DNA of 64,000 bases, taken from assembly GCA_004764695.1 (NCBI GenBank), contig SMSO01000014.1, positions 4,226,845 to 4,290,844 of the forward strand. The letters are read 5' to 3'. Below, in pieces: positions 28,933 through 51,652 of this stretch. The stretch comes from Schizochytrium sp. TIO01. Lineage: Eukaryota > Protista > Bigyra: Labyrinthulomycetes. The translations under genes and the position numbers were made by a program. The notes under the pieces were generated by a model, which made no database searches, was not told the origin of the DNA, and saw only the letters and a list, made by a program, of their open reading frames with translations. Position 1 is the stretch's first letter. Every line of letters begins with the position of its first letter.

Positions 28933-29348
28933 TGCTGAGATTCCCAATCGAAGGAACTAGTGGAGAAGACATTGCTAGAGTTCTTGGTGTCCCTTTGTAA
29001 AACCCAATAGAGATAAGGTTTACATTAGAACAAGAATTGGCAGCCAGACTCATGTGGCTGCTGAAGCCAAGAACTAGAAGTGTGAATACACATAACCGAC
29101 ACCCAAGCTTGGTGTAACTTGAATCGATGGTTGGAGAAGGTTGGATAACCTAACCCCATCGACTATCTCTAACCACATTCAAGAATGTCTTAATCTCCCT
29201 AATTACTACATGAATCCATCTGTCCTGGAATTCATTCCCCAGGACAGCAGTTCGCTAACACTTAAATCAACCTTCTTATAACCTTCATCAAGCTTCTTGC
29301 CTTCATCTTTACAGTCAACCTCACGCTAATCAGTATCACCTTTCAGCA
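28933..29348 (+). mobile_element. 5' LTR (416 bp) of a truncated Ty1/copia-type retrotransposon
   Basis: Termini TGCTGA...TCAGCA (TG..CA with a 6-bp inverted repeat), colinear homology to 49411..49834, PBS immediately downstream. Confidence 0.88.
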
Positions 29349-29361
29349 GGTTATGGACCCA
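29349..29361 (+). promoter_or_regulatory. Primer-binding site for a tRNA-iMet half molecule (copia/hemivirus type)
   Basis: GGTTATGGACCCA directly abuts the LTR end, one mismatch from the copia PBS GGTTATGGGCCCA. Confidence 0.8.
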
Positions 29362-29944
29362 AGATTACTTCGAGACTAACCAAGATGAACCAAGACCGCC
29401 CGTACTGATCAGGCCTAAACCATGGCGGCCTCGACCAGTATCTCTACGTCCTCTTAGACCACGTCCTCGTCGACTCCCATCTTCTTCTACATCCAACAAC
29501 CCTGATTAGTTTCCAACTAGGCCAGGAACCTCCTCGGACTCGATGAGAACGGAGAGCCTTCTCACCCAACTAGAACATCAAGGGGCAGACTCTCGTAACC
29601 CGCTTGCCCAAACGGAGTCCAGAACTGTCGACTACCTAGATCCATCGCAAGACACCTCTCAGCCTGGAACTCTCGCCGGCACAGATCCAATTGCACTGCA
29701 TGCACCCGAAAGTTCCAGAAGCGGTGACTCCCTGCAGTCCAATCCAGACTCTATTGGACAGCCGACTGATAGAGAGATGGAGAGCATGTCTCCAGCTGCA
29801 CTGACGCAATGCTATGTGGATATCACCCAGGTCGTTGATCACGATGAGCGGTCTTGAACCCTATTCCCACCTTCAAACATTAAAGAATTGTTCTTGCAAG
29901 CACGGGAGGACCACCTTGCGAGACAACGTGTCACCGAAGATGAC
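29362..29944 (+). pseudogene. Remnant of retrotransposon leader/gag region
   Basis: C-rich, higher-GC stretch after the PBS with broken ORFs (incl. 29543..29857); composition changes abruptly near 29945. No pol motifs seen; right boundary approximate. Confidence 0.5.
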
Positions 29945-32193
29945 ATAAATTCATGTTACTGGACTTTGGAACCCAATGTTATATGGAATGTAGCTATGTT
30001 TGAAGTTCCAATAGACGCAAATTCGGGGGAATCAGAAAACTCAGTGAATATTGGCCGTCGAGCAGAATTCAACAAGACCCTTTTGGCATTCGACATTAAT
30101 AATCCTGGGACTGAAATCCGGTGGCTAGATAGGGTTTACTGTGATCAACACAGTGATACCGGATGGCACCTTAGGCTTATTAAAAATGGAAAAAGATTCG
30201 AAAGTGACTCATCTTTGCATTGCGGATCCAGAAGATGGGAAGTACTGAGAGATGATGATTTTGGAACTAATTGGGCAGATTCTGGTCTTGGTGCAGGTTC
30301 AGGTTTGTGCGCATTTTCTCTCATTGACTCGTCACAGATTCCTTACGATGCCGGATGCATCTCTGCTGTAGGAGAGGAGTCAAATAATACATCTGCTCAA
30401 ATCTGTACCCTTGCTCAGCAAATGGTCTTCAGTGGTCTTAAGCATCGGTGCAAAAGAGATAGTAACCACAATGCTAATCAGATCTACTTTGAAACTACAT
30501 ATGGTAATAACGCAGTTCATGTGGACGAGAAAGGACACTACTATAGACCTGCTGTTATTAGTTACAATCAACTGAGGTTATTTTGTACAGAGACAAGGTG
30601 TTATTGGAAACAAAATAAGTCGAGTCCTACTCAGTTTTTCATTATGCGGAGTCAAGGATTGTCTGATAGTACTGCTTCAATTAAGGATGCTTATTACACA
30701 AATGCGAAACATATGGTTGAAGTCTATGAACTCGAAGCTAGCACAAACGCTTGGAAGAAAAGAGGTTTTCTTGCTTATAAAGACTCACAACTATACATAA
30801 GTTCCAAACAGGAATCAAAGGAAACTGTCGGGTTTGTTATCCACACTGACGGATTAGTTTACTATGAGGCTGGATCCAAAACAAGTGATTTAGTGACCAA
30901 AGAAGGAACAGTCAGCACTACAAAGGTTGAACGAAATGTACTAACAAGAAAAATTTGGTTGAATCGCGATGTCATCAGTGAGAATTCAACAGCAATTATG
31001 AATGGAAATATTCAGCATGTACTTTCCGTTTCCGAGGATGTCTCAATTTACCGTGATACTGAATGGGTTTCTATTCGAACAACTTGTCCTAGCGGCTCAT
31101 TTTTTCATCAAGTCGATTTCTTCACTGATTTCTCTGACATTACATTTCTCTGTCTCCAGAATACAGCTTTGCTACACATCAGGAGAAGATCAAATTGAGA
31201 AAAAGATCACCTATGGAGAGTTTACGTTATGTCCAGATGAGATGGTTGTTGTTGGTATGAATGATACCCACACCACCTGTGACAAATTAGTGAAGAATTA
31301 CACAATACCATCAATTGGCTCAAGAGAGCCTTTGTCGCTCATCGGAGGAGCCATAAACACCCGAGAAGAAGTTACCCTATCAACAGTGCCTCGTGAAGAG
31401 CTATGGATTGGAAGTCCACTCCAAGCTTTGGAGTTCTCAGATGACAAACTCTTCGTTTGGTTCCAAAATAAAAACATACATGTCCAAGATCCAAGTATTG
31501 TACACTAAAACATCATTTTTTAATGGTGCCAAGTTCACAAATATATTATCACCTTTCGAGAAGGTGCTGTGTCAATCAATTGCTCCCGATCCAAATGCTT
31601 TTGTAAATTTTATAAAGTGTGTCAATAAAAAGTGTCAAGAAGGAATAAAAATTAACTGCGACGCAACTCCCAAATGGAGACTCTCTAAAAATGTCACTCC
31701 TATTAAAGTTACATTTAAAACATCAGGACTTTACACTTGCCCTCCTGACTATGTAATTACAGAAATTGAATGTACAAGTACCTCACACGAAGCCGGTGTG
31801 GCAACACCTTGTCAAACAATAGCTCTTACATGTAACAGCATTTTTTATGACGAAACTTTCGAACCTATTTCAAATGGCCCCAAAAGTCACGGCGATGATC
31901 CTTCAGGTGGCAGTAGTACGGGTGGTGGCAGTAGTACGGGTGGCGACAGTAGTAGTAGTTCAAGTAATGCCCCTTTGCAAAACATACTAATATATCTTGC
32001 AATCTCAATATCAGTTTGCATTGGCATGATCGGTTTATCACTCTTCTTCACATGTGTAGCTCCCGTTCAAAAGCAACGAGTGCAGGTAAATGCTTCTACT
32101 TACTTCAAAATGTTCATCTCTGACCCTCACAGTAATCAAATTTCAACAAATCGCCTTCAAAGAAGAAAACAAATGGAATTATATCAGTACTGA
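29945..32193 (+). pseudogene. 5'-truncated, twice frameshifted Cys-rich type I membrane protein
   Basis: Three overlapping ORFs (29888..31198, 31002..31508, 31393..32193) read as one protein with repeated CP motifs (CPSGSFF, CPDEMVVVGM, CPPDYVITEIEC), a G/S linker and TM ILIYLAISISVCIGMIGLSLFF. Confidence 0.6.
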
Positions 32194-32964
32194 ATCTGTG
32201 TTTGCGACGTCGACATCTAGCAAATATAATAGAACATACAAAGACTTGATGTGCCTTTTGTACCTCCAAAAATCTCCATATTTTATTCTCTTTGTAATCT
32301 TTAAGAACGAGTTTTGCTTCGATGTAGCTTGTCTGCGTTCTATTATATCTTCACCTATTCTTCTAATTTCTGGCATTGTTGTGTTGCTTGTGTGAAAAAG
32401 AATGTATGAAACATTCAACATATCTTTAATAAATCGCTTTAGAGGCAAGTCTTGTATGATACCTACTGCGATCCCAAGTGCGTTACAAATAGAAATATGT
32501 ATTGACCTACGTTCTGCATTTCCCATCATGCGATAGAGTCATCGGGTGAGCAGAAGTCTTTTGCATTACTCAATGCAGTGATGACATCAGTGACAGAATG
32601 TCGTGACTCAACATGGAACCAGGCTTTTAAGACAGTGTAAAGCAACTCTATATCTATAGGGTGTTGTACTGATCAGTATAAGACTAAAATCGTCCTCCAA
32701 CTGAAAGGCTTTCTGAACATATGCACAAGCCTTAGTGCAATCACCTTCGTAATCTCTAAGTAAAAAACCTAACAAAATACAGGAGATTATAGTTGATTGC
32801 AGAGTAACACTACCATAGTACCCGCTTAAAAATTTCTCCAGATGATCAATGGCGTCATGAAATCTGTTCTGTTTTAAAAATAAGTAAACAATAGCTTCAA
32901 TGGAACTCGCACGTTGTGCTTTAAAATGCTGAACGCAGTCACGTTCAAATACATTAACTGTCAT
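32179..32964 (-). pseudogene. Fragmented helical (TPR-like) hypothetical gene
   Basis: Two consecutive minus-strand ORFs (32608..32964, 32179..32529) with amphipathic helices such as NRFHDAIDHLEKFL and KACAYVQKAFQL. Confidence 0.4.
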
Positions 32965-32998
32965 TTCATTACTGACTAGTTAGTCGAAAGCGCTCATA

Positions 32999-35900
32999 AT
33001 GCTCATTCGTAAGGGTCTAGAAAACGACATTAGAATACTGAAGCATTCCTTAAAATATATCCAAGCAACCAAAAACAATCAGACTGACATGCTGGACAAG
33101 CTGAACCGTAAACTTGTTCAGGTCTCACAGCAAAAGAAAGACCTATCTACAGAAAATTCGAAATTAAAATCCCAGATTCTAGATAACATGGAAAGATATT
33201 CTTTTGACGAGAGTGAGGGTGGTGATGACTCCGATGGTTCGATCGACCCAGAATCGTTTAGGAATGGTCTCGAGGCTCTAAAGGAAGGAAATTTTATTTC
33301 AGAGACAGATGCTACAAACATTACAAACATTCTTTTACGTGCCGATACAGAAGATGAGGAAAACATAGTAAGACGTCTCATTTGGAAACTTTTGAAAGGT
33401 CAGGGTAGCGACGAGGGTAAGCATGATTTTCTGAGCTCCATTGATCCCTTAGAAAGAAGTAAAATAAAAGAAGCAGATTTCCAGCGTAAATTACTAGAGC
33501 TATTCAATTCAGGAAACCTTAAAGAGGATGAAATGGATGCCCTGATGGAAGTGATAGATGAATGTACATATGGTGAACAGAGAGACGCGATGCTGTCTAT
33601 TCTGAACTCAGTGATTAAGCACTATGACGAAACGATCCAATTCTCAGATAATGTTAGTATATGCTATCCAGAAATCAGCGGAGACACTACCAGACCTGAG
33701 AGAAAGGATATCATAGAACTAATAGTGAAAAGTCTCAAGGAAATTTTCGGTTCAGCTTTCAGTTCGGATCAAATAGTGTCTGGTGTCGAACAAATGAAGA
33801 CACTTTTAACGGAGATCAGTGCAGAAAACTTACAAACGTCCAATCTAATTGATTTAGTTACAAAGAAATTAGAAGAAATTAAAGATCTTCAAGACAAATG
33901 TGATACGAAGGATTTAACGAGCACTTTCACTGAAATGATTGAATTAGTAGATGGTGTGAAAGAGTTTCATTTTGACTCTGAAAATAAAGATCCTGTGTGG
34001 ATGCGACTTTTAACCTCAGGGAACGAACTACTTAATGAGAAGCTAACGACCTACGATTCATTAGTGAACACGCTCAATGAGATTCTTAAACGCCCGGTGA
34101 CTACCGAAAACGTTGCTCAGCTGAAGAGTCAACTTGACAACCTAAAGACAGACTTCATCGAGGAAATCGAAACGATCGCAGGTTACAAGAAGAACATTGC
34201 TACTATTGCGAGCAAGCTAAACTCTGTGGAAAGCTTAGAATTATTTGAACAAGTCAAAACTATTGAAACCAGACTGTCTAAGTTTAAAACTAATTTAGAA
34301 AGTGCTCAAACGCCAGTTCAAGAATTACCGGAGGAAAACGAAGTTACTGAAGTAACTCCTGAAATACCACCTCCTCCACCTTCGAGAGCTATTCCAAATC
34401 CTCCCGCCCTGCAGAGAAATCTGCTTTCGTCGCGAGTCTCTACTTTGAAGGCACCAAAAGGTGAAATAAAATTGATCGACCCAGAATTGTACGATTTTCT
34501 GCTGAAGATTGCGGGTCTACCAAAGGAAGAAGGAAGTGGAGACATTCCTCACGTGAACAAGTCCCTTGATGCGTCTTCTTTAATGATTCCGAACCTACAT
34601 GAGTTGACAACAGGATACTACCATCTCAACACTTTGTATGAGAATACGAAGGCCCTCTTGATAAAGGGAACCGAAGAAGCAAAGGAGGCCTTGGAATCTG
34701 CGAAGAATGTGACAACGTTCGGGCGTTGGTCGAACTACACAGTCTATGCGAGATACATTATCTATAAGTTTATTCTTCTCCAAGATAAGAATAAGAAGAC
34801 TACTCTGACTAGCTTGGTAATTGCTTTGGGATTAAGAACAGAAGACGCAACCATCGGTCGTCTCGCAGAAGCAATCATCTCAAGAATTATTGAGTCAGAC
34901 ACTATCTCATCTAAGCAAGAAATAGAACTCAAAGGTGCTCAAGAAGAGGAGAGGCTTGCAAAGGAACAAGAATTGATCCTTCAATCTACGGAATTAGTAG
35001 ATCTTTCTTCATTGAGCAATGAGAATGTTCAAGAACTTGCATTTCAGGAATTAGGATCGAATAATGTCATGACGTCTGCAATGACCCCTTTGGAAATTAC
35101 AAAGCTTTTCCAGGATGATGGAGCTTCTATTGGTGCCCTTCGATTCCTCTTCTATGAGATGTTTACTGAGTATGATGATAACAATGTCATCATTGCTCCT
35201 GATGAGTCGGACATCAGTAATGATCGCTTAGAATCAATGATTAGACAATCAAACGTCCTCGAATCTCAAAAGACAAAATCGAAGACTTCATTCGACATGA
35301 ACTACATCGAGAATAACAAATTTAAAAACCCAATTGTTGTTGAAGCTGATGACGAACTGTTACGTATCTTGGATTTGGTATTCAAGAAAGCAGATAGTTC
35401 GGATCTTACAGATGACGATATCGATAATCAGACATTTGCTTACTTTTACCGGTCAATGATCGGACCTTTTGCACAGTATAAGGATACAATTATCGATGGG
35501 ACAGAAATGGAAAAGCTGGTCTCGTTAGTAACGGGACGCCTCCGAAAAATCTTGACTCTTCTTAAGCATAGTGAGCAAATTATGAATCAGAAGAAGATAC
35601 AATTTGAAGAAATTGACTCACTACAGTTCACTAACAAAAATATCAACGATTTTATTGATGAGATTAGATTTCTGTTGTTGAATCTGGTCTCTTTGAAGGA
35701 AGCGAACTTTACAGGTGCAGCGAAGAAAGAAGTAGAATATTTGCATATTCTCTTCAGAGTAGTTGGAATTGAGGCAACCTTTAGAAATGTCCTGTATCGT
35801 CGCCTCTTCCTGATTGCCGATAAGAAAGAGCACCGAGAAATCGTGGAGGAGGATATGATCCCCAATGGATTTTCAATGGTTGGTGCCTTGGATTTGGCGC

Positions 35901-36748
35901 CATTAATGCTTTTGAAAACAATTAATACACTTTGTGGGAAAAAGGAGTTCACAGATGACGAAGTGAAACAATACCTCGCAGTGGAAGTATTGACACTGAT
36001 GAATTTCTTCACAGGGCACTTTGAAGGACATAATCAAGGTGATCTAGAAGAAATCTTTAGCAAGTCAGATGTTAAGAATTTCCGTACTATTGTCTCACCG
36101 CGAGAGGGAATGACGGCAAATGTGACCCCGCTTGTCTGTCATGACGTAGTACCAGCACTCTTTAATAAGGTTAGCCAAAAGGTCACGCCTTTTGATGTAG
36201 AACTAAAAATGGCCTGGAAAAAAACTGATAAAAACTCATTTGTGAACATTGGTGATCCATATGTTTCAAGAATGGAGTCTTTGAAAATCTTTCAGTTAAT
36301 TCAACAAAGACTCGGCGATCTAAAACCAATTTTCCCTGAAATTGCAACGCAAATATCATCTATTTCAGAACTTAAGACTCTTCAAATTTATGACACAAAG
36401 CAAGAGGAAGCTCAATCAGTGGAACTTGTCGGTGACATCTACACAACTAGTGAAGAGAAAAAGTTTGCTCTGAAGTTCATTGTCAAGAATTTATTAGTTG
36501 AGAATGAATACTTCAAATTAGACAATCCCACTAAAAATTTACCCAAGGTCACCCCGAGTGCGTCACAACAGTCTTGTATTCTAACGTTATTTCTGAATGA
36601 TTACATCAAGGTTTGCTTACACCAAGATTCGTATAACTTACTTCCAAAAGAAAAATTTCAATCTGAACTTCAGTTTGCAGGAAACATCTTTGGTGAGGAT
36701 CAGGATATTGTATCTTTAGTATTGGGCGTAATGAGGGAGGAGCCTTAA
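32999..36748 (+). CDS. 1249-aa acidic helical/coiled-coil orphan protein
   Basis: Long uninterrupted ORF, E/D/K/L/I-rich, with a central PPPPPSRAIPNPP hinge; no family recognised. Confidence 0.8.
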   Translation: MLIRKGLENDIRILKHSLKYIQATKNNQTDMLDKLNRKLVQVSQQKKDLSTENSKLKSQILDNMERYSFDESEGGDDSDGSIDPESFRNGLEALKEGNFISETDATNITNILLRADTEDEENIVRRLIWKLLKGQGSDEGKHDFLSSIDPLERSKIKEADFQRKLLELFNSGNLKEDEMDALMEVIDECTYGEQRDAMLSILNSVIKHYDETIQFSDNVSICYPEISGDTTRPERKDIIELIVKSLKEIFGSAFSSDQIVSGVEQMKTLLTEISAENLQTSNLIDLVTKKLEEIKDLQDKCDTKDLTSTFTEMIELVDGVKEFHFDSENKDPVWMRLLTSGNELLNEKLTTYDSLVNTLNEILKRPVTTENVAQLKSQLDNLKTDFIEEIETIAGYKKNIATIASKLNSVESLELFEQVKTIETRLSKFKTNLESAQTPVQELPEENEVTEVTPEIPPPPPSRAIPNPPALQRNLLSSRVSTLKAPKGEIKLIDPELYDFLLKIAGLPKEEGSGDIPHVNKSLDASSLMIPNLHELTTGYYHLNTLYENTKALLIKGTEEAKEALESAKNVTTFGRWSNYTVYARYIIYKFILLQDKNKKTTLTSLVIALGLRTEDATIGRLAEAIISRIIESDTISSKQEIELKGAQEEERLAKEQELILQSTELVDLSSLSNENVQELAFQELGSNNVMTSAMTPLEITKLFQDDGASIGALRFLFYEMFTEYDDNNVIIAPDESDISNDRLESMIRQSNVLESQKTKSKTSFDMNYIENNKFKNPIVVEADDELLRILDLVFKKADSSDLTDDDIDNQTFAYFYRSMIGPFAQYKDTIIDGTEMEKLVSLVTGRLRKILTLLKHSEQIMNQKKIQFEEIDSLQFTNKNINDFIDEIRFLLLNLVSLKEANFTGAAKKEVEYLHILFRVVGIEATFRNVLYRRLFLIADKKEHREIVEEDMIPNGFSMVGALDLAPLMLLKTINTLCGKKEFTDDEVKQYLAVEVLTLMNFFTGHFEGHNQGDLEEIFSKSDVKNFRTIVSPREGMTANVTPLVCHDVVPALFNKVSQKVTPFDVELKMAWKKTDKNSFVNIGDPYVSRMESLKIFQLIQQRLGDLKPIFPEIATQISSISELKTLQIYDTKQEEAQSVELVGDIYTTSEEKKFALKFIVKNLLVENEYFKLDNPTKNLPKVTPSASQQSCILTLFLNDYIKVCLHQDSYNLLPKEKFQSELQFAGNIFGEDQDIVSLVLGVMREEP

Positions 36749-36913
36749 TTACCTCCCTTTGTTAAAATATCTTGAAAGACAGATTACAGGGAACTTTCAA
36801 ATTAGGATTTAAATTAATGAAGTATCATATCTTCTTCTATTCTGTATGAACAATATTATTATTATTATTATTAAAAACTAAGCGAACCATGACCTTGAAA
36901 TGGCTTGGCTTTA

Positions 36914-39727
36914 TTAGACAATCTCGTTGTTCTCTAGATGCGCCTCTGTATTGTTGGTCCTTGACAAAGTCCGGAAATCCTTTGCCGCGTCAATGCCAAA
37001 TGCCTCCGCGAGCAGGTTAAAATCTTCTTCGCGGAGGGCTTCGCTGCGAGACTTCTTGCTGCGCTCCAGGTCGATAAACTTCACATTGCTAGCATCATCG
37101 ACAACAATATTCCGCAATGCCACATCTCCATGGATAAAACCAGCCTTATGGATCTTGTCGAGAGCTAAAGCAGCCTTCCAGTACAGTTCCTCAAGTCCAC
37201 CGTACTCTTCTAATTCCTGCGTATGTAGATCGCACAGTGATTTACCACACTGCTCCGTCGCAAAAACTACCAGGTTCAGAGTCTCGTCGAGACCGCAAGC
37301 TGTTACCCGTGGTACTACATCACCCTGCAGCGCGTGCAGAGCTGCGTATACTTGACCCTCATGTCCAAGTGCATACGCAGAATCATGCAGTGCGTAAGTC
37401 GTCTTGACGAAGCTAGAGACGCCGTTGATCATGATGTCCGGATATCCTACAGCTTTACCGCCCAGAACAGTTCGCATATTGGGGGTCTCCAAGTTAGGGC
37501 CCAGTCGAAACGCAGCAAAGACGGCAGCATTTCTTTGTGGTCCACGATTTCTAGATCTGCGTGCCCTTGTGGAGTTGCCATTCCGACTTGTACTATTGTT
37601 AGTACTGGTGCTAGAACTGCCTTCCGAAGAACGTTGTTCGACTGAAACAACGACTTTGCCTTTTATAATATTATCCACAGTTTCTTTTGTGTCTTCACTT
37701 CCGTCCTTTAGCCATTCTAAGTTCATATTACCACGGGTAGGGTTGTGATCTTTAAGTGCACGATAGAGAAAAACGAGCCACGCTTGACCAAGTGACCAGT
37801 TCCCTGGATTGGAACGACCTTCGTTATCGTTTCTATTTGAGTAGAAAGCTTCGCTCACCTTAACAGTCCGATTTTTGGAATCGCGACGGAAAAAGTACGT
37901 CTGCGGTCCATTCGTCAATGCACCAAAATTAACGGCTGTAGACACCATGTAAAGACAAAGTTGGGCAACGGAACTCCCTATAGTACGAATAACCAGACTT
38001 CTCCTCTTCGCGGCGCGAGGAGGAGGTTCTCTCACTTCAGTTTCTTCAATGACCTGTTTAAAATACTCGTATTTATCAGGATTTTCCTTTTTTGCAACCT
38101 CTTTGTTTCTAGGTGCCCACTTTTCGAAGTAGTACCTATTAATCAGATCAATAGGATGTTCCTTCAAGGTTTCAGGTGTCTTGCACTCGAGCATAGTCAA
38201 TATTGCCTTGGTCAGCAGAGTATTAAGCTCAGCAGATAGATTTTCGCGCACTTTTCCTCTCGTTTTATCCTCATCCCTCAGTTGCTTACGAATCTTCTCC
38301 TCCTTCGTCTTATCCTTGACAGATATTTGCATATCAACCCTTCGATGATAAATAGACGCTGCAACTTGTATTGCTGCTTCCATTTTTGTGTCGATCGCAA
38401 AGTTTCCGTCGTTCGTGTATGTAATTACATCCTTTAGAACATTCTTCATTCCAGCCTTTAAAATGTACCCTAATATCTTCATCATGTATCCATGAACTTC
38501 AGATTCTGGGAAACAATCATACGAATCAGACTCCAGAGCATAACATTCCTCAATGAACATTTTCCTCTTTCTGGAGAACAGTTCAATTGCAGCATCAGAC
38601 TCGGGATCCTTCTCAATTTCCCAACCTTCAGCGTAGAGTGGCATGAAGTATTCAGGGACCTCTGTCGTAGCTTTCGACATCTGTGATGTCTGGGCTTTTC
38701 GACCCTTCGGCTTCTCGCGTTGTGCGGAACTTTCGGCAGCGGACTGGCTCACAGCAACTCGCTTTGCTCTATCATCGAATGAGTCTTCGCGGTCCTCTTC
38801 GTCTTCGCGGTCCTCTTCGTCTTCATTCTCTACGTCTTGACGGTTCCTTTTCGACGTTGTTGAAAAGATTCGCTTGGTTTCGATCGTTGCTGGATCTTGA
38901 GCGAAGTGATCCCAGATGGTTGCAGTGTCTTCGAAATTAAGAATTTTCTTGATTAACTTTCTCGAAAAGGTATTGTTTGCAGCTTGATCCTTATTTGGGA
39001 GGAGGCATCCTTCATCGCCAAGTTGCTCAATGCGAGAACGCAAACTTTTCTCTGAGCCTTTATCTTGAATAAGCTCTAGCATCTGTTCGTCGTCATTAAC
39101 GAGAGCGATGACCTCCTCCGCAGACATTTGGCTGATAACTTCCGGAGTCAGTGAAGTAGGACGGCTGGACGAAGAAGAGGGTTCCCAGATGGTTGTAGAC
39201 CTTTGCAAATCCGCGATTCTCTGGGTTAACTCTTCTGAAAAGTCGTCGTTTGCAGCTTGATCCTTATTTGGGAGGAGGCTTCCTTCGTTGGTAAAAGCGA
39301 AAATTTGAGAGGTTAACTTTCGAATCAAGCCTTTATGTTGAATAAGCTCTAGCATACGTTCGTCGTCGTCAACGAGAGCGATGAGCTCCTCCACAGACAT
39401 TTGACCGATATCTTCCTGAGTCAGTGGAGGAGGAGGACGGCTGGACGAAGAAGAGGGTAGCATGGCTCTCCCTGCTGATGCGACGGCAGAGATACCGCGT
39501 CTAAGTACCGATCGCTTGCCCCTTCCAGCATCACCGCCGCGTCTTTGGTCAGTTGTCAGCCATTTTCCTTGTTTCGGTTTTGCAGGGCTATTTGCTTTTT
39601 CTTTTGCTGGAGTGAAGGCGCGTGCAGCAGCAGTGGAAACAGAGGTAGTGTGATGTGAGGGGGAAAGAAGAAGGAAAACTTTACTTTCGTCTATCACTGT
39701 CGATAGAATTAAATCTACTCTACTCAA
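36914..39727 (-). CDS. REase-fold (PD-(D/E)xK-like) + protein kinase-like fusion with a duplicated N-terminal module; true start uncertain
   Basis: C-terminal HEGQVYAALHALQGDVVP, IHKAGFIHGDVALRNIVV and KFIDLE kinase motifs; central RRVDMQI...MLECKTP...QLCLYM...FGALTNG. The ORF-track start is TTG; first ATG near 39463. Confidence 0.75.
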   Translation of the reverse strand: MSRVDLILSTVIDESKVFLLLSPSHHTTSVSTAAARAFTPAKEKANSPAKPKQGKWLTTDQRRGGDAGRGKRSVLRRGISAVASAGRAMLPSSSSSRPPPPLTQEDIGQMSVEELIALVDDDERMLELIQHKGLIRKLTSQIFAFTNEGSLLPNKDQAANDDFSEELTQRIADLQRSTTIWEPSSSSSRPTSLTPEVISQMSAEEVIALVNDDEQMLELIQDKGSEKSLRSRIEQLGDEGCLLPNKDQAANNTFSRKLIKKILNFEDTATIWDHFAQDPATIETKRIFSTTSKRNRQDVENEDEEDREDEEDREDSFDDRAKRVAVSQSAAESSAQREKPKGRKAQTSQMSKATTEVPEYFMPLYAEGWEIEKDPESDAAIELFSRKRKMFIEECYALESDSYDCFPESEVHGYMMKILGYILKAGMKNVLKDVITYTNDGNFAIDTKMEAAIQVAASIYHRRVDMQISVKDKTKEEKIRKQLRDEDKTRGKVRENLSAELNTLLTKAILTMLECKTPETLKEHPIDLINRYYFEKWAPRNKEVAKKENPDKYEYFKQVIEETEVREPPPRAAKRRSLVIRTIGSSVAQLCLYMVSTAVNFGALTNGPQTYFFRRDSKNRTVKVSEAFYSNRNDNEGRSNPGNWSLGQAWLVFLYRALKDHNPTRGNMNLEWLKDGSEDTKETVDNIIKGKVVVSVEQRSSEGSSSTSTNNSTSRNGNSTRARRSRNRGPQRNAAVFAAFRLGPNLETPNMRTVLGGKAVGYPDIMINGVSSFVKTTYALHDSAYALGHEGQVYAALHALQGDVVPRVTACGLDETLNLVVFATEQCGKSLCDLHTQELEEYGGLEELYWKAALALDKIHKAGFIHGDVALRNIVVDDASNVKFIDLERSKKSRSEALREEDFNLLAEAFGIDAAKDFRTLSRTNNTEAHLENNEIV
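38911..39459. repeat. Intragenic tandem duplication, period 273 bp (91 aa)
   Basis: cccagatggttg starts at 38911 and 39184; both copies share tttgcagcttgatccttatttgggaggaggc, tgaataagctctagcat and ggacggctggacgaagaagagggt. Confidence 0.9.
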
Positions 39728-40185
39728 AGTCCTCTAATGACACTAGATAGTACCTTCCTAGTATCTACTTGACTCCTTTCTTTTCTTTTTTTCAATTAAA
39801 AAATAAAATAAAAGATAGTTTGCCTAATTGATTAAGTATCTGAACTGTTTAAAAAAAAATAAGTCGTCTTTTTTTGTCTACCAGAGAGATGGGAAACACA
39901 AAAAGTATAGGTGTGTAGGTTGTGTATTCTTTCCCCGCTCGACTTGAGAAAAGCGTACCCCTGTTTCATAAAAGGGTAGCTCGTAGGATAGTTGAGTCAT
40001 TCTGAACTCCGAGAATGCGGTTCCAATAAATCAAGAATTAATGAAGGGAGTGGAAAACTCCTAATTGACCAGTAAACTAAACTATTCATTTCTTTTCTTT
40101 TCTTTTCTTATTAAAAACTAAATAGTCGACTCCCAGATATAAGGTTGGTTACCTTTTTTTTTTCTCTTTCGTGTTTTTAATCTTG

Positions 40186-41270
40186 TTAACTTGCTACTTT
40201 ACAATAAAAAGTAGCGTGAGGGTAGTCTTTCCATAATGAAATAAGGTAGGGGTGCATAACAAGGATCCCATCATAGATGTGTCGTCCTGAGTTATAGACT
40301 ATACTTGGTGGGTTTATTGTAGAGAACCTGTTGATAAACATGTCATAAATAGTGACTTTTGCACCTTCCATAGTAAGCATTTGTGCAATTTCGGAAATTG
40401 GAGATTCATCGTGCTCTGAAGCCCCTGGTTGATTTCCGAATCCTACTATCAGGAAAGCCTTTTGGTGTACCTTATCAAGGTCGCCTGAGCAGTATCTATT
40501 TACGATATCTTGGAAGATGAAGCGCGGGCGTAGACAGAGCTGTTCAATAGCTGTAGTTAATAAGGGAAACTTCTCTTCACTACCGATCAGCGAAGCAAAG
40601 TTATACTTGATTCCTAAAGATGGGTGGTCATTTTGATAATTGGTCCAGATAAAGTTCGAGCCTTCAATTGCATCGCGCATCGATATCTCTTTGCTAAAAT
40701 TGGCAGAAAACTCATCGATAGCAGCTTGAATAGCAGCTCTTTTTGCCAAGTCCAGAAGAGTTGCGCACTCAGCAGCTTCTGCAGTTTCTGTAATGTAGAT
40801 GTGAGTATAAAACAATGATAAAAATGGCAAAATCACTTGTGCAGCTTCTCTTGAGTTTGCTCCTAACAGTCTCGGTGAGTCACGCGGTGCTTCAAATAGA
40901 AGCGAGGGACACCGGTGAATAATGTTTAGGGGGTATGCGATGGGAATTTCACCTGCAGTTGCCTTAACAAACTTCCCAACTGTACCAACCGGGATTACAG
41001 TTTCTATAATGACCATCCGGGGCTTGACGTTTTGATAATTGGGATGGCACAGAGCAATGTTTGAATGCTAACTGATGGCTCAAAATCTTGTCCAATACAT
41101 ACTAGACATATATCGATATTTTCCAACTTTGCACTTGCATTTCCCAGCTTTAGGTCATAAATTGTAGCGGCTATGTCATCGTGGTTACTAAAATGATCAA
41201 GATTGTTTTTAATCATGATTCGACTTTGACTGCTTTCGCCAATATTTGCAATTAATAAAACCTTTTGCAT
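40186..41270 (-). pseudogene. Degenerate UDP-glucose/GDP-mannose (nucleotide-sugar) dehydrogenase-like gene, one frameshift near 41017
   Basis: DICLVCI, VIIETVIPVGT, TAEAAECATLL, LIVGFGNQPGASEHDESP and GAKVTIYD match the family layout; ORFs 41004..41270 and 40186..41016 join with a 1-nt shift. Confidence 0.7.
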
Positions 41271-41302
41271 GATCTCCCGATAATAACCATTAGCACACTT
41301 GC

Positions 41303-41335
41303 TATATAAAGGAATAGTTCTCTCATTATATAAAG
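41303..41335. promoter_or_regulatory. Two TATATAAAG boxes in a divergent intergenic region
   Basis: Exact TATATAAAG at 41303-41311 and 41327-41335 between genes starting at 41270(-) and 41487(+); TATATAAG also at 43475-43482 in the next divergent gap. Confidence 0.4.
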
Positions 41336-41486
41336 ATGATAAATTACTTTCAAGTACAAGATAGGAAAAATAGAAATCTTCTTAGTTCATATATGTAATG
41401 GAAAGCTTTTCACTAAGTTCAGTGTGGGAGACTTGTAAGAACACAGTAGCATTTTTCCTCAATTATTTGCATTCCTTCTTTAACGA

Positions 41487-41936
41487 ATGAATGATGTTTA
41501 CTACGTACCTGTAGTAGAGACCTTGCATGCAGGAATGATAGTCTCCAAGCTTTTGTGTCCTATCAAAGTTCAATTATTCCGTTCATCCTCGGATTATAAT
41601 TTGTGGTGGAGGTACACAAGATCTGCTCCAGAAATCCGTGCTGCGAGTCAATCAAGAATATTGACAGTTCCCTGTCCGGGAGAAGACGCACTTTTATCAC
41701 ACTATCTCGCCCATGCGATACACTCGTTTTATCTCTTCAACGAAACAATGAACCTGGAGCGGATAGGCAAATTTTCATTGAGTAATTTTACTTTTACTTA
41801 TTCTATAGATCATGGTGAGATCATCTATGTTCCTTTTCTTCCCTGGCATGCAGTATCAGTAACTTTTAAAAGTGGTGCTGGTGATGATCTTGAGTCTGGA
41901 TATATGTCCATCAGTGTTTGTTCGCCCATGGTGTAA
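41487..41936 (+). CDS. Hypothetical protein (149 aa)
   Basis: ATG ORF filling the gap in the gene-dense block; no motif recognised. Confidence 0.45.
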   Translation: MNDVYYVPVVETLHAGMIVSKLLCPIKVQLFRSSSDYNLWWRYTRSAPEIRAASQSRILTVPCPGEDALLSHYLAHAIHSFYLFNETMNLERIGKFSLSNFTFTYSIDHGEIIYVPFLPWHAVSVTFKSGAGDDLESGYMSISVCSPMV

Positions 41937-42076
41937 CTAAGAATGGTCAACAGAACAGATGGTCTTACAGTGAAGCATAAGCTTTTAATTACTTTTTTTC
42001 TTCTTTAAGCTTTAAACCATTAATAATAATAATAATAATAATTATAGTAATAATATTAATTATAACAAGTAAGACC

Positions 42077-42890
42077 ATGGGACATATTATTCGAACAGAA
42101 ACAAGCTTAAAGCTTTACAGGTTTATTATTCGAGTAAACATAACTTTGGATGAGTTTGCTCATACTCACCGGAACTGTGTCCTTTCAGTCTCCAGTGACT
42201 GACGATGTACGCATTACGAAAAGGCCTTCACGATGAACATCTTCGATGCCAAAAAGTTACCCTACCCTGCGCTCGTTTGCATGGTTTTTACAATGACAAT
42301 GGAGTCCGACGCATTCATTCCAGTATTTGAATCGTTGTTTGGAGTTTTCAAAAGAAGATATTGATAAACCGACCTTGGTAAATTGGGTAGAGAAGTACTA
42401 TACACCTCACAAGCCCCTTGATCTCGAGGGTTTGTTTCTTAGCTTGAACTCCTTGGCTTCAGTTTCACTAAAAGTAAAAGGTCGAAAACAAAAACCACGG
42501 GTACTGCCCTCATATGATGTTCATAAAAGTGACGAGCTTGAAGGGTATGACAGTGATTATAACAACAGGAGGGCAAATCAATTTGCAAAGTCACTAACTC
42601 TTTCTACCAAAGAGGATGACGGCTCTAGTCCAGCCCTCTCAATGGACCAGCAATCATTCTGTGCACTCGTAGTACATCCATTTCCAGAAGCGACACATCT
42701 TGCAATCGAGGTCTTTTCGAGCGGTGTGCTCAATGTAGCAGGGATCCCTACAGATGAAATCTTTGAACACTTAACACATTATGTAAATACGAAGCTTGGT
42801 CCTTTGATGGAACAACACGCTTTAAAGAGTAACGAGTTAAACGAAAGAGAAAGTGAGGAAGAAGATCGGTGGGATTTACTTTTTGGATAA
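42077..42890 (+). pseudogene. Divergent TATA-binding-protein-like gene, 5' half disrupted
   Basis: ORF 42327..42890 has LDLEGLF and FCALVVHPF...LAIEVFSSGVLNVAGI, like the TBP repeat (FPGLIY...LLIFxSGKxxxTG); an upstream broken frame contains SYSPELCP (cf. SYEPELFP). Confidence 0.5.
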
Positions 42891-43439
42891 GCAAGCTCTA
42901 TCATACCAACACGCCTGAAGTATTGCGTCTGCGACATCATCCTGTTTTGCTTTTGGTACTTTAGCCATATCTTTTGGGAAAAGTTCATGGGCTTTAACAA
43001 TCGCAGCAGCTTTATTTGCCCTTCGATTGTTTTCTGCACCACGAACGACCTTCCCTGCGACCTTCCGTGAAGCAGCACCTGTTTTAAAAAATGTCTTGAC
43101 TGACTTTGAGTGAACGATTCTGTATTCAAAACCTTCACAGATGCACATAGAAACGATTGAGTACTGCGCAATGTACATTTTCAGTCTCATCTGATCCTCA
43201 ATGAGGATAATACTCGCTTCTTTGAGCATAGGGTAAATCTTTGAGGTTTCCTTGTTAAACATAAGGTTGTAGATCCCCATTGGAATATTTCTTTGCGACT
43301 TCAGCGCCTTGAGGGATGGTGCGAAGGCGATTCGATCACAATAGACCATCTTTTTGGTTGAGCTATCATAAAGAGCTACGCCAATGTTTATGATTCCGAT
43401 GTCAATGCTGAAGATTAAGCTACTTCTTCTGTCTCCCAT
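42876..43439 (-). CDS. Holliday junction resolvase, poxvirus A22/RuvC-like
   Basis: IFSIDIGIINIGVA, IILIEDQM, VHSKSVK, NKAAAI and KQDDVADAILQA carry the acidic catalytic positions of the family; first ATG 43439. Confidence 0.88.
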   Translation of the reverse strand: MGDRRSSLIFSIDIGIINIGVALYDSSTKKMVYCDRIAFAPSLKALKSQRNIPMGIYNLMFNKETSKIYPMLKEASIILIEDQMRLKMYIAQYSIVSMCICEGFEYRIVHSKSVKTFFKTGAASRKVAGKVVRGAENNRRANKAAAIVKAHELFPKDMAKVPKAKQDDVADAILQACWYDRACLSKK

Positions 43440-43530
43440 AATTTTCAATCAGAACTTGTTCATCTTGGATTCAATATATAAGTACAAATGTGAGGGGAAT
43501 GTCCAGTAAGGGCACAAAAGAGTTGGACTA

Positions 43531-46500
43531 ATGGTTTTACAGACTATAGTCTTGTTGGTTGTCTTGTTCCTATGCAAGACCAACGCACAGGAAGAGACCC
43601 CTGCGCCAACTGCCGAATATGACCTAAGTATTTGTGAAAGTTCCTTAAGTGTTGGTAACTATGCGACTATTTGGGCTAGTCCCGACCGGAATGTGATGTA
43701 TGGATGGGGAGCTAATACCCTTAAGGAACTCAGTAGCGCTAGTGACCCCTCGGCATCTTTCATCGAGCCTTTCAAGATCAATCACTCGACTATTAGTTCG
43801 CCGATGCATCCTAGAGAGGCACTTGCGTTCGCGTGCGTCCTCGATGGACTAACCCATAAAATCCACTGCGTCGGTTCAAATTCAGGATACCTGATCTCTA
43901 AAGAAACAACTAGCAGTACGAGTACAGTGTTCACCGAGTTCACAGAGCTGTCGGATTTTACAAGTGAGTACAGTTCCTTTGCAGTATCAAGGAACTCCTT
44001 GTGTGCAGTTACACTTAATCAAACTGTCGTAACATGTTCGGGTACCAATACTTTTTACCAAAACGGAAGAGGTACAACCTCAAACGGTCGCGACGTTCCA
44101 CCTTTCGACACCCTAAGTTATGAAACGAATCTCGAAGAAGGGGTCACAATTAAGAAGTTAGAATCTGATAAGATTGATAATCACTTCTGTGCACTTCTTA
44201 GTAACAACACTGTCACGTGCTGGGGCAGCAACGCAAATTATGCACTTGGAATCACCGGGTCGACGAGCCTTCCAAGTCCAACGTGGGTCGACACAGAAGA
44301 ACAGGGTAACATTAAAGACATTACCTTGGATGAACAAAATATCGGACTTATTACTTTGGATGGTCGTTTCCTATTTGCAGGGCAAAATAAAGAAGGAATG
44401 TACTCAAACGATGTTGCTTCAGGTAGCTACATCGAAACTGGACCTGTTTAAGTCTTTGATTCAGGTAACGACAACATTGCTTGTATCTTCATGTATAGGA
44501 ACTTCTGTCTTCGAAAGACAAATGGAACCGTTTTTTGCAAGGGTGAGAATGCCTACGGACAATATCATAGTTCCAAAGTGAACTCATTCTCCAACTTCAT
44601 TGAATCAGACAGAATCACTGCCGAGACTGTTGTATCAGTGAATTCTCAAGTTATTTGTGGTTATAATCTGACTGATGATACAGTTAGTTACTGGGGAGCT
44701 AACAACTACCCCCAATTTGACGCAAGTGGAACTGTCCCGTCGACACCAGTTCTTATGGAAGGTGTTTCATGTGCGCCTCTACCACCAACTATGGCACCGA
44801 CACTTTACCCAACGATGTCTCCAACTGTCTATCCAACGAGAGAACCTACTACACTTTTCCCAACAACTTCAGAGATGACTTGCGGAGCGAACATTGCAAC
44901 TACTACCGCAGGTGCTTCCTACTATATTAGTGAAGAACGCAACGCCGTAATTGCTTGGGGCAATGACGGTAATGAAGTTGGAATATTGGGTTTGGGAAGA
45001 GATGTTGGAGACATTGACTATCACCCCCGACGAAGATACCTGGCTCTTATGTTAACCCAGTCCAAATTTCTGTTGAACCGACCGGTAGTTTAGCTTGCGT
45101 CCTTGATGGATATGACGATTCAGTTCATTGCATCGGAAAGGACCCCTTTGGGGCTATTACAGCAACATCGAGTGCTGAAATGTATGAGATGACCCGTTTT
45201 ACTGCGATTGATAATGATGAAACGATCAAAAACATTGATGAAATTTCAGTAGGAATGTCAAATATGTGTCTGGTTATTAATAACAGGACTGAGATAAAGT
45301 GTATTGGAGGAGGTGCCTATGGTATGAATGGCGCAGGTGTTACTGGAACCACAACAATTCCAGTATATGCTATCAACAGTGCTGCTGGCGCCGGTGAAAA
45401 AATCATTCAGCTTGAAAACAACATGTTCACATATTGTGCACTTTTCAGTAACAACACAGTTTATTGTTGGGGATACAATGACAACAATCGCATTGGACTT
45501 CCTGATTATGTAAGTGGAAATAGTCAGCTTTCCCCAATTTTGATTCCTGACATGAGCTTCACTAAAGTCACTTTCGGACAGCACAACATTTGGGGACTTG
45601 GAACTGATGGGAAAATTTATGCTTCAGAAAAGAACACCTTCCAGGTAATTACGGGTGAACTAGAGACGAATGTTTTCACTTCTGAATGGCTTGTCGTTGA
45701 AGGGACAGATAATTACAATTTTGACCTTTGGGCATTTGAACAAGGTTTCTGTGTTAAGAAACGGGACAAAAAGACATACTGCAAGGGCAATGGAGCTTAT
45801 GGTCTTTTTTCAGAATCGGATTCCACACATCACTTCACAGATTTGATCGAAAATACGAGGATGCCAAATCTGAGAGAGTTCCGGAGCTCTAGTAATCTAC
45901 ATGTCGCGCTTTTCGAAAACGGAACTGTTAAGACCTGGGGATATAATTCTCCTTTGCGGGTTGGAAGTACATCTATGGGAACGAAGGTGAAGACTCAGCA
46001 AGTAATTGAAGAAGCCTATTGCTCACCAAAGTTTGCTCCGTCGATGACACCAACTCAAATTCCAACAGAAGCACCTACCTCAGGTCATTCTTGTTCAACA
46101 GAAGGACAATCCAATAAATTCTTGGGTGCTACTGTCAACACGGATCTCAATCAGGTCTTGATGTTTGGAACGGATCACTTTGGCAAGTATCTAGCGGGAG
46201 ATGGTCAAAAGAGTGGAACTATTGAATTGTATGAGTTGATCTCAAGCCTGGACTATGGTCCACGGGCAGTAAGCAAGTTTTCCCTAGGAAATAACCACGC
46301 ATGTTTGATTGATCCAACAGATGACTCTGTTTGGTGTTGGGGAACTGGTACTTACGGCAGTTTGGGTAATAAGAACGGTGCACTTTCATCGTCACTTCCT
46401 TACCCAACAAAAATTAACATTGAAAGTCCCGGACAAGGCTATAAAGATGTCGTTGTTACAGACTCGGCTACCTTCTTCTTGAGCAATGACAACCGAACGG

Positions 46501-47501
46501 TGAAAGTCATGGGTAAACACGTCAACAATATGTTCAGAACTGGAGGAAGTAATGCTGTACAAAGTATGTTTACTGTTCAAGATCTAGGTAACCGAGTAAT
46601 TAAACGGATATTCGCCGGCGGGCTATTTTCTGTTTGCTATATTTACGAAGACGATCAAGTTGCATGCGCTGGAAGCACTTACGGATTCTGCCATGAAGGA
46701 CAAGTAAGAAATTCTGTAGTCACAAATTGTACAGGTAAATTTGCAAAAATCAGTGACTTTAGCTGCCCCTCAAACTTTAACAGCTGTGTAGTCAATATGG
46801 AAGGGCAGATCGTTTGTACTGGTAACCAGAACACTTACGGACAAATTGACCCATCCGCTGTTGGAACAGCAGAGTACACTGGAAAGGTTATTGAAGGTAT
46901 GGGAAATGATAATAAATTCGCCGTGTTTTCAAATGACTTCGCCTGCGGAGTTAAACAAAATTCAGGAGACGTTTATTGCTGGGGCAGAAACAATTATGGT
47001 GTCTTAGATGGAAATAGCACGAACTCAGATGCAACTTATACAACCCCGATTAAGATCCAAAATATTACAGGAGTTACTGCCATTTGGGGAAGAGATACAC
47101 TGTTTGCTAGAACGAAGGATGGCGACCTGAAAACTTTCGGTGTACATAATGGAAATTACTTTAAGACTTTGACAGGTGTTTATGCATCAATGATTAATCC
47201 TCCGATGACAATTGATGTTCTTCATGACTACTCATGCCCTCTAGAGGGCCCGGATGTATATTGCACCAGTGGTGATCACGCAACCTACTCTACGTCCAAG
47301 GTCTTTTGTAACGAAGAAATGGACGATTATGCTGCTAAGGCTATTTGCTTTGTGCTCGCTAGCCTTTGTTGCGCGCTTGTGATCACTTGCAATGCAAGCT
47401 GTTTGGCATTTTTGTGCCTGGTTTATCCGGACTTATTTTTTCTCGTTGGCTATGGTCGTAGTGGCGAGCGCTCAGGCCCAGTAAGACGTAGCCGTGTTTG
47501 A
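43531..47501 (+). pseudogene. ~1320-aa type I membrane protein with three RCC1/BLIP-II-like propeller regions; one in-frame stop and one frameshift
   Basis: Signal peptide MVLQTIVLLVVLFLCKTNA; many C-WG-N-YG repeats; PT-rich linkers; C-terminal TM. In-frame TAA at 44449-44451 and a 1-nt loss in the C5 run at 45024-45028 join ORFs 43531..44451, 44491..45093 and 45180..47501. Confidence 0.82.
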
Positions 47502-47506
47502 GCGGC

Positions 47507-47746
47507 CTATGTTTTGGCCTTGGTAGGGCACCACTTTGTAAAGTCCGTTTTCATGTAAGGCGAGGCCATGAAAGCAAGCAGTTCATTACGACTGCTGCTT
47601 TGCATTGCCACCAGCATTTGAACAAGTGCCCAACCACTATAATGTGCCTTTACATATTCAAATTTAGGAATTGGCATGTTATTGCGTCCGTTGATCTGGT
47701 TTTGAGCGTTATACACCCAACGCGCAAGAAACGCGTGACTCTTCAT
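47507..47746 (-). CDS. Small ORF, possible Erv1/ALR sulfhydryl-oxidase C-terminal remnant
   Basis: LARWVYNAQNQINGRNNMPIPKFEYVKAHY resembles W..HNxVNxRLGKP..F.....Y; no CxxC present. Confidence 0.3.
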   Translation of the reverse strand: MKSHAFLARWVYNAQNQINGRNNMPIPKFEYVKAHYSGWALVQMLVAMQSSSRNELLAFMASPYMKTDFTKWCPTKAKT

Positions 47747-47979
47747 AATGAAACGTGGTTATGATTACTTAGAGGTATTTGGGGAAATGTCTTAGGTGGT
47801 AGTAATTAGTTATTATTATGGCTAGGCTTGTCTTGTAGAATGTGCTTGATAGATTCAAGTGCTTCTGGTCGCTTTGGCATTTCGGGTCTGCCTGCAGGTT
47901 TTGCTTTGTAGACTCCTCTCGATGCTTGCTTGATTCCCTTCATTCCCTGGTTGATTCCGGCGCAATGTTGTACATCACC

Positions 47980-48935
47980 CATCATGCCATCGTGACACTT
48001 TTGTCCTGCTTTCGTCAGATAGGGGCTCCTCTTAATCTTGCGAAGTCATGTCGCAGAGATGTGTCTGAATTCCTTCTCAGTATCAGTGATTTAACGCATA
48101 ACAATTGGAAGTCAAAAACCTATCAATAGAAAAAGTTTGTGTAGCTTTAGCTATTCCATTGGTCCCACAAATATCGACAGGTACTCCTATTCGCAAAGCA
48201 CAAGCCATCTGTAGATTGCAGCTTGCCAAGAACAAAAACACAAAACAATGTTTAGTCTTGGGAAGCTTGCTGAAGCTTCGCCTTCTCTCTTTGTGATGAT
48301 GCTAATTGACGTGCTAGGACCTGTTTGCATGAGTCGAACGGGGCTGGTAGGAGGAAGCACGTCTTGTTATGATGCTATGGTGAAGCAGTTTGGTATTCCG
48401 ATTGCAGAAGTGGCTCATGCTCCTTATCTAGATTACTTAATTGATGACTCTGGCTCGCAAACCGACTTGGCAATGCGTAAAACTCTTATGTATTATAGAC
48501 CGGCATCTTACGCGGAAGCATACCACCCTGGAAGTAGCTTTGGACACACCTTTGTCATTTGTGGCTACCATTTTATCCCTACTGCATCAGAGGATAGCTA
48601 CTACATTTGCGAGAATTTTCACTGGGAGAATGGCACAACCTTTCATGGTGCGCTCTTGATTAAAATTAACTTCTTGCATGCTTGGGCTGGACAGCATTTG
48701 ATTGAGAGAGACATTACTTGCTGGAACCATGATATCACCACAAAAAAAGGGTGGATTCGGGCGCCTTGGCAAATTTACTGTTGTTCACAGTATTGCAACT
48801 AGCTTACTATTCCCTTTAGGAATGTTGTATGACCTCACCGACTACTTAGAAGCAATCTCCACTATGACTCCAGAAGAGTACGAACAACAAAACAAGACTT
48901 TCCAGAAACGACAATTTTTACAGATTAATAATTGA
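47980..48935 (+). pseudogene. Fragmented gene, possibly a papain-like cysteine peptidase
   Basis: GHTFVICGY...YYICENFHW resembles the papain GHAVxIVGY...YWxxKNSW His/Asn motifs; flanking frames are broken. Confidence 0.35.
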
Positions 48936-48968
48936 GAAAATTTCTCATTAACTTGACCCCTCCCTCAA

Positions 48969-51514: not shown

Positions 51515-51652
51515 TCCAAACTCCAAACTCCAAACTCCAAACTTCAATTTTCAAACTCCAAACTTCAATTTTCAAACTCCAAACTTCAATTTTCAAACTC
51601 CAAACTTCAATTTTCAAACTCCAAACTTCAAATTCAAACTTCAAATTCCAAA
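51515..51652. repeat. Minisatellite, 21-bp unit CAAACTCCAAACTTCAATTTT built from 7-mers
   Basis: About four full units plus (CCAAACT)n and degenerate ends. Confidence 0.9.

Follow-up and report, generated by a model that had tools for sequence, protein, structure and literature searches.

The stretch of DNA considered here, called the window below, is 64,000 nucleotides long and comes from the protist Schizochytrium sp. TIO01 (assembly GCA_004764695.1, contig SMSO01000014.1, positions 4,226,845 to 4,290,844). A block of about 19 kb within it (29929-48935) carries, among other genes, a Holliday junction resolvase gene and a gene resembling that of the TATA-binding protein (TBP), and was read in a first-pass annotation of the sequence as a fragment of a large DNA virus that had become integrated in the chromosome. 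The GC content of the block is 0.41, as against 0.45 in the left flank and 0.46 in the right flank, and the mean GC content at third codon positions (GC3) is 0.37 for 12 open reading frames (ORFs) of the element compared with 0.50 for nine host ORFs (p=3e-4; the ORFs of an inserted kinase gene and of a host DDE nuclease were left out). These contrasts bear out the AT-richer codons reported over ~19 kb in the annotation. Coding sequence, broken pieces included, spans 89% of the block; for the flanks, counted from long ORFs only, the share is 59% on the left and 26% on the right. Across the whole block, the kinase insert excepted, GC3 is low and the genes are tightly packed. The three signs of tight packing that had been pointed out, namely the divergent pair at 32964/32999, the overlap at 42876-42890 and the convergent pair at 47501/47507, are all found at these coordinates, with two caveats: the divergent pair may mark the seam of a rearrangement, since one contig of a public sequencing run (X1, see below) joins at 33006 with different upstream sequence; and the start of the 79-codon ORF in the convergent pair is the exact edge of a 337-bp repeat insertion (47746).

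The resolvase gene (42876-43439, minus strand) is intact and encodes a RuvC/A22-type protein of 187 amino acids, as judged from its relatives, their alignment, a PHROG match and a structural model. The protein matches PHROG 1770 (E 2.9e-7), the acidic residues D13, E81, D168 and D171 are invariant in the alignment, and the predicted structure (pLDDT, predicted local distance difference test, 94.5) matches RuvC and poxvirus resolvases; among the top 50 structural matches in viral proteins, identity is at most 21%. A search of 1.84 billion representatives yielded 57 relatives, while none was found in the prokaryote genomes searched or, with a single-sequence query, in viral_contigs. One relative, P0030, has the sequence given for the AurliV-2 resolvase in the PMC12606086 supplement. 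It is only 31% identical to the window protein, which therefore points to another virus and not to a copy of AurliV-2. Near-identity to AurliV-1 was likewise not found, as ORF181 and ORF762 of that virus are clearly different by eye.

The TBP-like gene (42077-42890, plus strand) is divergent and broken in three pieces by an internal stop (42200-42202) and a frameshift near 42348. All three pieces match a profile of the TBPs of two metagenome loci, L014 and L017 (E 2e-8, 3e-5 and 4e-4); both of these proteins are recognised by Pfam as TBP and both genes adjoin a resolvase gene. By eye, the gene is also of the type of AurliV-2 ORF955 and AurliV-1 ORF762. A third gene (ORF149; 41487-41936, plus strand, 149 amino acids), to which no function is assigned, has homologues adjoining the TBP-like gene in L014 and L017. 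These matches are weak (E 5e-4 for L014; z=6.4 with 0/500 shuffles for L017); BLASTP gave no alignment between ORF149 and L017, and the ORF149 alignment found no relatives in viral_contigs. The order ORF149-TBP-resolvase is kept in both L014 and L017. Resolvase and TBP-like genes overlap tail to tail by 15 bp in the window and by 30 bp in AurliV-2, and overlap in this way in L017 too; they are convergent and 840 bp apart in AurliV-1 and in tandem in L014. TBP is reported in 59% of mirusvirus genomes versus 0% of nucleocytoviruses (PMC10132985). The same source counts Holliday junction resolvase and TBP among the mirusvirus core genes, and both of these non-virion genes are present in the block.

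Relatives of the resolvase also lie in 45 loci, 32 from metagenomes and 13 from viral_contigs, all collected by likeness to the window. The closest metagenome resolvases are 44% (L014-L016), 35% (L017) and 34% (L018) identical to that of the window; those of the viral_contigs loci are only 25-28% identical, and four of the 13 (L002, L004, L005 and L011) carry capsid, A32 or VLTF3 genes of nucleocytoplasmic large DNA viruses (NCLDVs). In L018, a 744-residue ORF (1491-3725, plus strand) 950 bp from the resolvase matches, by eye, the printed AurliV-1 HK97 capsid protein, and in L014, which also contains Snf7, an ORF (69-563, plus strand) similarly matches the AurliV HK97 maturation protease. Pfam gives no match to either ORF, and no relatives of the L018 capsid were found in viral_contigs. 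On their gene content L014 and L018 are likely to be further Soporavirales-type mirusviruses. In a quick resolvase tree of 80 rows, from which eight short, partial, redundant or doubtful matches had been left out, the window falls in a 25-row group with AurliV-2, L014, L017 and L018 (Shimodaira-Hasegawa-like approximate likelihood ratio, SH-aLRT, 96). In a more careful tree of 36 chosen rows, the window and all three rows linked to mirusvirus hallmarks are separated from all four NCLDV-linked rows (support 94/98). Neither tree makes the window the sister of AurliV-2. The resolvase phylogeny favours a mirusvirus origin without proving it, and the relic as a whole likely belongs to the Mirusviricota, whose members are distantly related to herpesviruses, near the thraustochytrid (Soporavirales-type) viruses. 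The annotation had held that the phylum could not be fixed from the window; the resolvase/TBP-like pair and the neighbours of its relatives do narrow it to Mirusviricota, and the pair is thereby shown to be able to assign relics that lack a capsid gene.

The absence of virion genes, on the other hand, had been correctly noted. When 1,608 ORFs of the 45 loci (capsids of both phyla, protease, polB and topoisomerase included) were compared with the window by tblastn, only the resolvase and TBP region was matched; the comparison revealed no homologue of capsid, protease, polB, topoisomerase or reductase genes. In particular, neither the L018 capsid-like ORF nor any other locus ORF detects an HK97-fold major capsid protein (MCP) in the window, and the L014 protease-like ORF detects no capsid maturation protease. 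Double-jelly-roll capsid, A32 ATPase and VLTF3 genes of L002, L004, L005 and L011 have no match in the window, nor is there a Pfam match to these families. Terminase, portal and triplex 1 and 2 gave no Pfam or PHROG match among window ORFs in general scans, which used no mirusvirus queries for these proteins.

Contigs of seven of the 24 listed public runs were aligned to the window: X1, X2, X3 and X12, which are DNA runs of three studies, and X15, X16 and X17, which we guess to be RNA (none is recorded as RNA, and X16 is flagged as probably DNA). At least half of the sampled words are present in 15 of the 24 runs, from eight studies (seven without X1, itself possibly the source). Contig depth, a rough guide, is close to host level in the DNA runs at 29366-32260 and 48054-49405 and about three to four times higher from 32.3 to 47.7 kb; depths at the two ends are 419 and 406 in X1, versus 386-419 in the host flank, and 11.5 in X3, versus 7-9. 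In X1 the window allele of position 35258 has single-copy depth (~400 of 1,924). Sister copies differ in their deletions, one lacking 41864-44315 (X1, X2) and some lacking 36775-40014 (X12, with a joint from 36774 to 40015). Like the depth, these differing alleles and joints agree with a core present in several copies.

Decay in the single-copy ends is real because the window sequence, breaks included, recurs in X1 and X2: differences number zero (X1) and four (X2) over 29410-32260, and zero (X1) over 48054-49405. The combination of orphan genes and decay described in the annotation is to this extent upheld. The core frameshifts at ~41029, 42348 and 45023 lie in homopolymer runs of four to five bases and are missing from the majority allele in all covering runs, so that they are either private to the window copy or assembly errors. 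AurliV genomes are described as intron-rich (PMC12768974). Spliceosomal introns were considered as the cause of the breaks and rejected: over 30134-31540 and 43355-45658, contigs of the putative RNA runs continue with 0-1 gaps and without any splice joint, an argument that weighs only if these runs are RNA. In X15-X17 the kinase region is deepest, and 40-47 kb is thin in X15 and X16. The intact ORF of 1,249 codons in the core shows at least 28 differences from sister copies (in the best 40 of 600 rows), four synonymous and 24 non-synonymous. The expected synonymous share is 21-27% (p=0.2), and there is no sign of purifying selection. The window copy seems to be drifting neutrally. In sister copies some frames have likely stayed open, and these copies may have weak transcription.

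Host repeats flank the block on both sides. On the left lies a 416-bp element (28933-29348, plus strand) with ends TGCTGA...TCAGCA, a flanking, non-viral host repeat of high copy number, probably of long terminal repeat (LTR) type, with depths from tens to more than 100 times that of the flank and loose contig ends at 28933 and 29348. A second LTR-like host repeat (49411-49834, plus strand) is preceded by a segment (49339-49410) common to other copies. The two are 83% identical, have TG...CA ends and are likely solo or truncated LTR elements of 416-424 bp. We considered them as terminal repeats of the virus itself, which is ruled out by their membership of a high-copy host family; they also do not indicate an LTR retrotransposon with the block as cargo, given that they are only 83% identical and that the outer flanks show no target-site duplication. 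The sequence after the left repeat (29349-29928, plus strand) has no Pfam match and is likely the internal start of an LTR retroelement, since contigs of X3 and X12 agree with the window as far as 29928 and diverge there. A motif after this repeat we take to resemble a copia primer site, for which we found no paper. In X1, X2 and X3 single contigs lead from the retroelement-like flank past 29928 into the block, and in X1, X2, X12 and X16 they lead past 48935 to 49405, so that viral sequence is contiguous with host repeat DNA at host depth at both junctions. The reading of the block as the integrated remains of a large DNA virus is supported. No empty site for the whole element was seen among the aligned runs, all of which had been chosen as holders of the block.

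The remaining genes of the block are orphans or belong to generic families. At 29996-32193 (plus strand) an orphan gene is broken into three overlapping frames (400, 168 and 250 amino acids) with one C-terminal hydrophobic segment and no Pfam match; it likely encodes a type-I membrane protein and is single copy, being at host-level depth in X1, X2, X3 and X12. Two short orphan ORFs follow (32179-32964, minus strand; 116 and 118 amino acids), where depth steps up from the single-copy level, and then the multi-copy, acidic 1,249-residue ORF (32999-36748, plus strand), a likely coiled-coil protein with no homologue in any search made with it. A divergent nucleotide-sugar (UDP-glucose-type) dehydrogenase gene (40186-41270, minus strand), frameshifted near 41029 in the window copy, matches TIGR03026 at E 7.6e-8, far below the family cut-off, and Pfam UDPG_MGDP_dh_C at E 0.0075. 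The gene at 43531-47501 (plus strand, ~1,320 codons) encodes a surface protein with Pfam RCC1 (RCC1/BLIP-II) repeats, a hydrophobic N-terminal leader and C-terminal membrane segments; it is interrupted by a stop (44449-44451) and a frameshift near 45023, has only generic matches of 20-35% in similarity searches, and in its 3' half has a 92%-identical paralogue in X15, X16 and X17. A 79-residue remnant (47507-47746, minus strand) resembles, together with 48083-48301, Erv1/Alr proteins by eye only; it has no library match, and the loci offer no Erv1 sequence for comparison. An interrupted, single-copy gene at 48248-48935 (plus strand) may encode a papain-clan peptidase: its ESM Atlas feature scores of 0.92-0.93 to clusters with C10/C39 members are a lead only, and it has no Pfam or PDB match. 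AurliV-1 encodes RCC1/BLIP-II-like proteins (PMC12606086) and C1 peptidases are mirusvirus core genes (PMC10132985), so that the RCC1 and peptidase-like genes fit a mirusvirus without being proof of one.

Two segments within the block are host-derived or likely later arrivals, and together with the multi-copy core they correct the picture of a single, uniform viral fragment. The kinase gene and its flanks (36775-40014, minus strand) are likely a later insertion, with host-like composition (GC 0.445, GC3 0.45). Its 849-residue ORF (36914-39463) has a duplicated N-terminal repeat, a weak restriction-endonuclease-like middle and a C-terminal kinase (Pfam Kdo E 5e-5, Pkinase 9e-5, HSDR_N_2 4e-3); the N-terminal part contains a 273-bp duplication that is missing from other copies. 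Endonuclease and kinase in this layout resemble the C-termini of Crinkler-type proteins as described in PMC5289972, and the insert may be a member of a mobile family of Crinkler-like genes, here in a protist that is free-living. The second segment (47746-48082) is a 337-bp multi-copy host repeat resembling a miniature inverted-repeat transposable element (MITE), with a depth peak and loose ends in X1, X2 and X12, TCA on both sides (a 3-bp duplication) and imperfect short inverted ends.

The genes of the flanks are ordinary eukaryotic ones (methyltransferases, TMTC, ankyrin-TIR, GMC oxidoreductase and BRO1). Among them are an intact 460-residue ORF for a DDE_Tnp_4 (PIF/Harbinger-type) nuclease at 19726-21108 (minus strand; Pfam E 2.6e-23), a transposase or a domesticated gene, and an ankyrin-repeat protein with a C-terminal TIR_2 domain at 21865-23979 (minus strand), a candidate of innate-immune type a few kb from the relic. 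Gene-poor stretches on either side (24100-28900 and 49850-51100) contain protein-like broken frames, for example at 28417-28809 and 49894-50273 (both minus strand), and the decayed region may extend past the borders given above; of the 85 flank fragments (24-30 kb and 49-54 kb), 60 were compared with Pfam, and none of these has a credible match. Tandem arrays at 51515-51645 (based on a 21-mer with CAAACTT) and 52265-52597 (GAAT-rich) mark the return to host-type intergenic DNA.

The explanation that we favour, with a probability of about 0.72, is that the 19-kb block is a decaying, several-times-copied remnant of a mirusvirus that is neither AurliV-1 nor AurliV-2. Several observations weigh against it. 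Mirusvirus-linked homologues are available for three genes only (41487-43439, ~2 kb), the capsid and protease of L018 and L014 were identified by visual comparison with a supplement and have no Pfam support, the 94/98 branch is slightly below the threshold for a star in a tree whose members were gathered by likeness to the window, contig depth gives no copy number, and all contigs break at the flanking repeats, none bridging to a unique host gene. It is accordingly conceivable, if unlikely, that only the 2-kb core of ORF149, TBP-like gene and resolvase is mirusviral and that the remainder is DNA of the host or of another virus which ended up in the same duplicated segment. The generic matches of the RCC1 gene, the dominance of its 92% paralogue in the RNA-guessed runs, the inserted kinase and the single-copy ends without homologue would all agree with this, whereas low GC3 and tight packing across the block, the kinase insert aside, and the presence of RCC1/BLIP-II-like proteins in AurliV-1 and of C1 peptidases in the mirusvirus core speak against it. 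We think it quite unlikely that the host amplified the block of a third mirusvirus to about four copies and domesticated the intact, transcribed resolvase and RCC1 protein of the sister copies, for example against persistent mirusviruses; domestication of the resolvase or surface protein in a sister copy is possible and is unsupported by the selection count.

An origin from a thraustochytrid nucleocytovirus (SmDNAV-like, 'Skiavirales' or 'Ariadnavirales'), or from a mosaic of mirusvirus and skiavirus, is very unlikely in our view. Such viruses are described as counting A22 among their core genes, as carrying Erv1 and numerous carbohydrate genes, and as exchanging genes with mirusviruses and hosts; an approximately unbiased (AU) test does not reject forcing the window resolvase to the NCLDV side (p=0.24), and the Erv1-like look of 47507-47746, itself unconfirmed, would suit them. 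Because of that p value, the mirusvirus assignment rests on gene family and gene order more than on the tree, and here the type of the TBP-like gene is that of AurliV ORF955 and ORF762, the top 50 viral structural matches of the resolvase do not exceed 21% identity, and TBP lies outside the listed core and information genes of these nucleocytoviruses (in the Ariadnavirales text, TATA or TBP occurs 0 times). Least probable of all is that an episomal virus was co-assembled, or that the assembly is chimeric, with no chromosomal insertion, although the core is at 3-4x flank depth, contigs break at both flanking repeats, and the three homopolymer frameshifts are missing from majority alleles. The ends of the block show host-level depth, and in several runs single contigs connect them with host repeat sequence; the block itself contains host repeats, the window allele at 35258 has single-copy depth in X1, and the depth ratio is similar across runs of three studies.

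Mirusviruses of the kind favoured here are reported to persist and assemble in the nucleus (PMC12606086), which would place viral DNA beside host chromosomes. A viral fragment may then have been captured by break repair or recombination, a probable route because no integrase is seen, with the left junction inside the LTR-like element at ~29928. After capture the fragment would have eroded, the kinase gene (~3.2 kb) and the 337-bp repeat would have inserted, and overlapping parts of the core would have been duplicated at about three further sites, differing in their ends and deletions. We infer this course of events from what is observed in the block, that is, the resolvase and TBP-like genes with their arrangement and relatives, the breaks, the inserts and the depth steps. 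The window copy cannot make particles from the genes present and, as a virus, most likely does nothing.

Comparison with known systems places the block beside previously described integrants. AurliV-2 (LE-Chr15 of Aurantiochytrium limacinum; PMC12606086, bioRxiv 10.1101/2023.06.15.545109) is likewise chromosomal, has ~41% GC in a host of 45%, and contains an overlapping convergent resolvase/TBP-like pair. However, it is ~270 kb long, subtelomeric between blocks of ribosomal DNA, and has a full virion module and no obvious erosion, whereas the block is 19 kb, lies among ordinary genes, and is broken, multi-copy and without virion genes. The AurliV-1 episome and other Soporavirales (PMC12768974; bioRxiv 10.64898/2026.07.28.741200) have linked resolvase and TBP-like families and RCC1/BLIP-II surface proteins in common with the block, but AurliV-1 is circular, intact and particle-producing. 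Membership of the order Soporavirales is defined by an MCP-portal-terminase phylogeny, that is, by virion genes absent from the window; of the undescribed lineage proposed in the annotation, a virus distinct from AurliV-1 and -2 is supported and a new higher taxon is not. L014, L017 and L018 have the closest resolvases with known context, and L014 and L017 the same three-gene order, but these loci have no other gene in common with the window and are apparently intact.

Eroded giant-virus insertions in protists are, like the block, fragmentary, decayed and invaded by host elements; giant endogenous viral elements (GEVEs) of Euglena have reportedly undergone both transposon invasion and duplication. 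The block differs from such insertions in that its core occurs in about four near-identical partial copies, common to runs of many studies. Degrading mirusvirus genes have been described in Schizochytrium aggregatum (Latimer et al.), as has a viral polB pseudogene on a different A. limacinum contig (Collier et al., bioRxiv 10.1101/2023.06.15.545109); according to a 2025 survey, no chromosomal mirusvirus integrant other than AurliV-2 is known (PMC12768974). In the mirusvirus literature consulted, preprint supplements apart, we found no account of a mirusvirus block in Aurantiochytrium that would be a third one, decayed and multi-copy, and look-ups of earlier findings had nothing on this genome or its sequence. 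That protist assemblies can contain fragments of mirusvirus DNA has been reported more generally (PMC10827195), which makes the block less of a surprise. The block points to a further, older mirusvirus infection at a late stage of decay, common to many sequenced cultures, in a host that is likely an Aurantiochytrium-type thraustochytrid and so of the AurliV-2 host group; if this is true, it would complete, alongside the episome and the intact integrant, a series of three stages (free, integrated and fossil) in a culturable, industrially used protist. We conclude that the block is a genuine endogenous relic of a virus, which was likely a mirusvirus of a lineage separate from that of AurliV-1 and that of AurliV-2.

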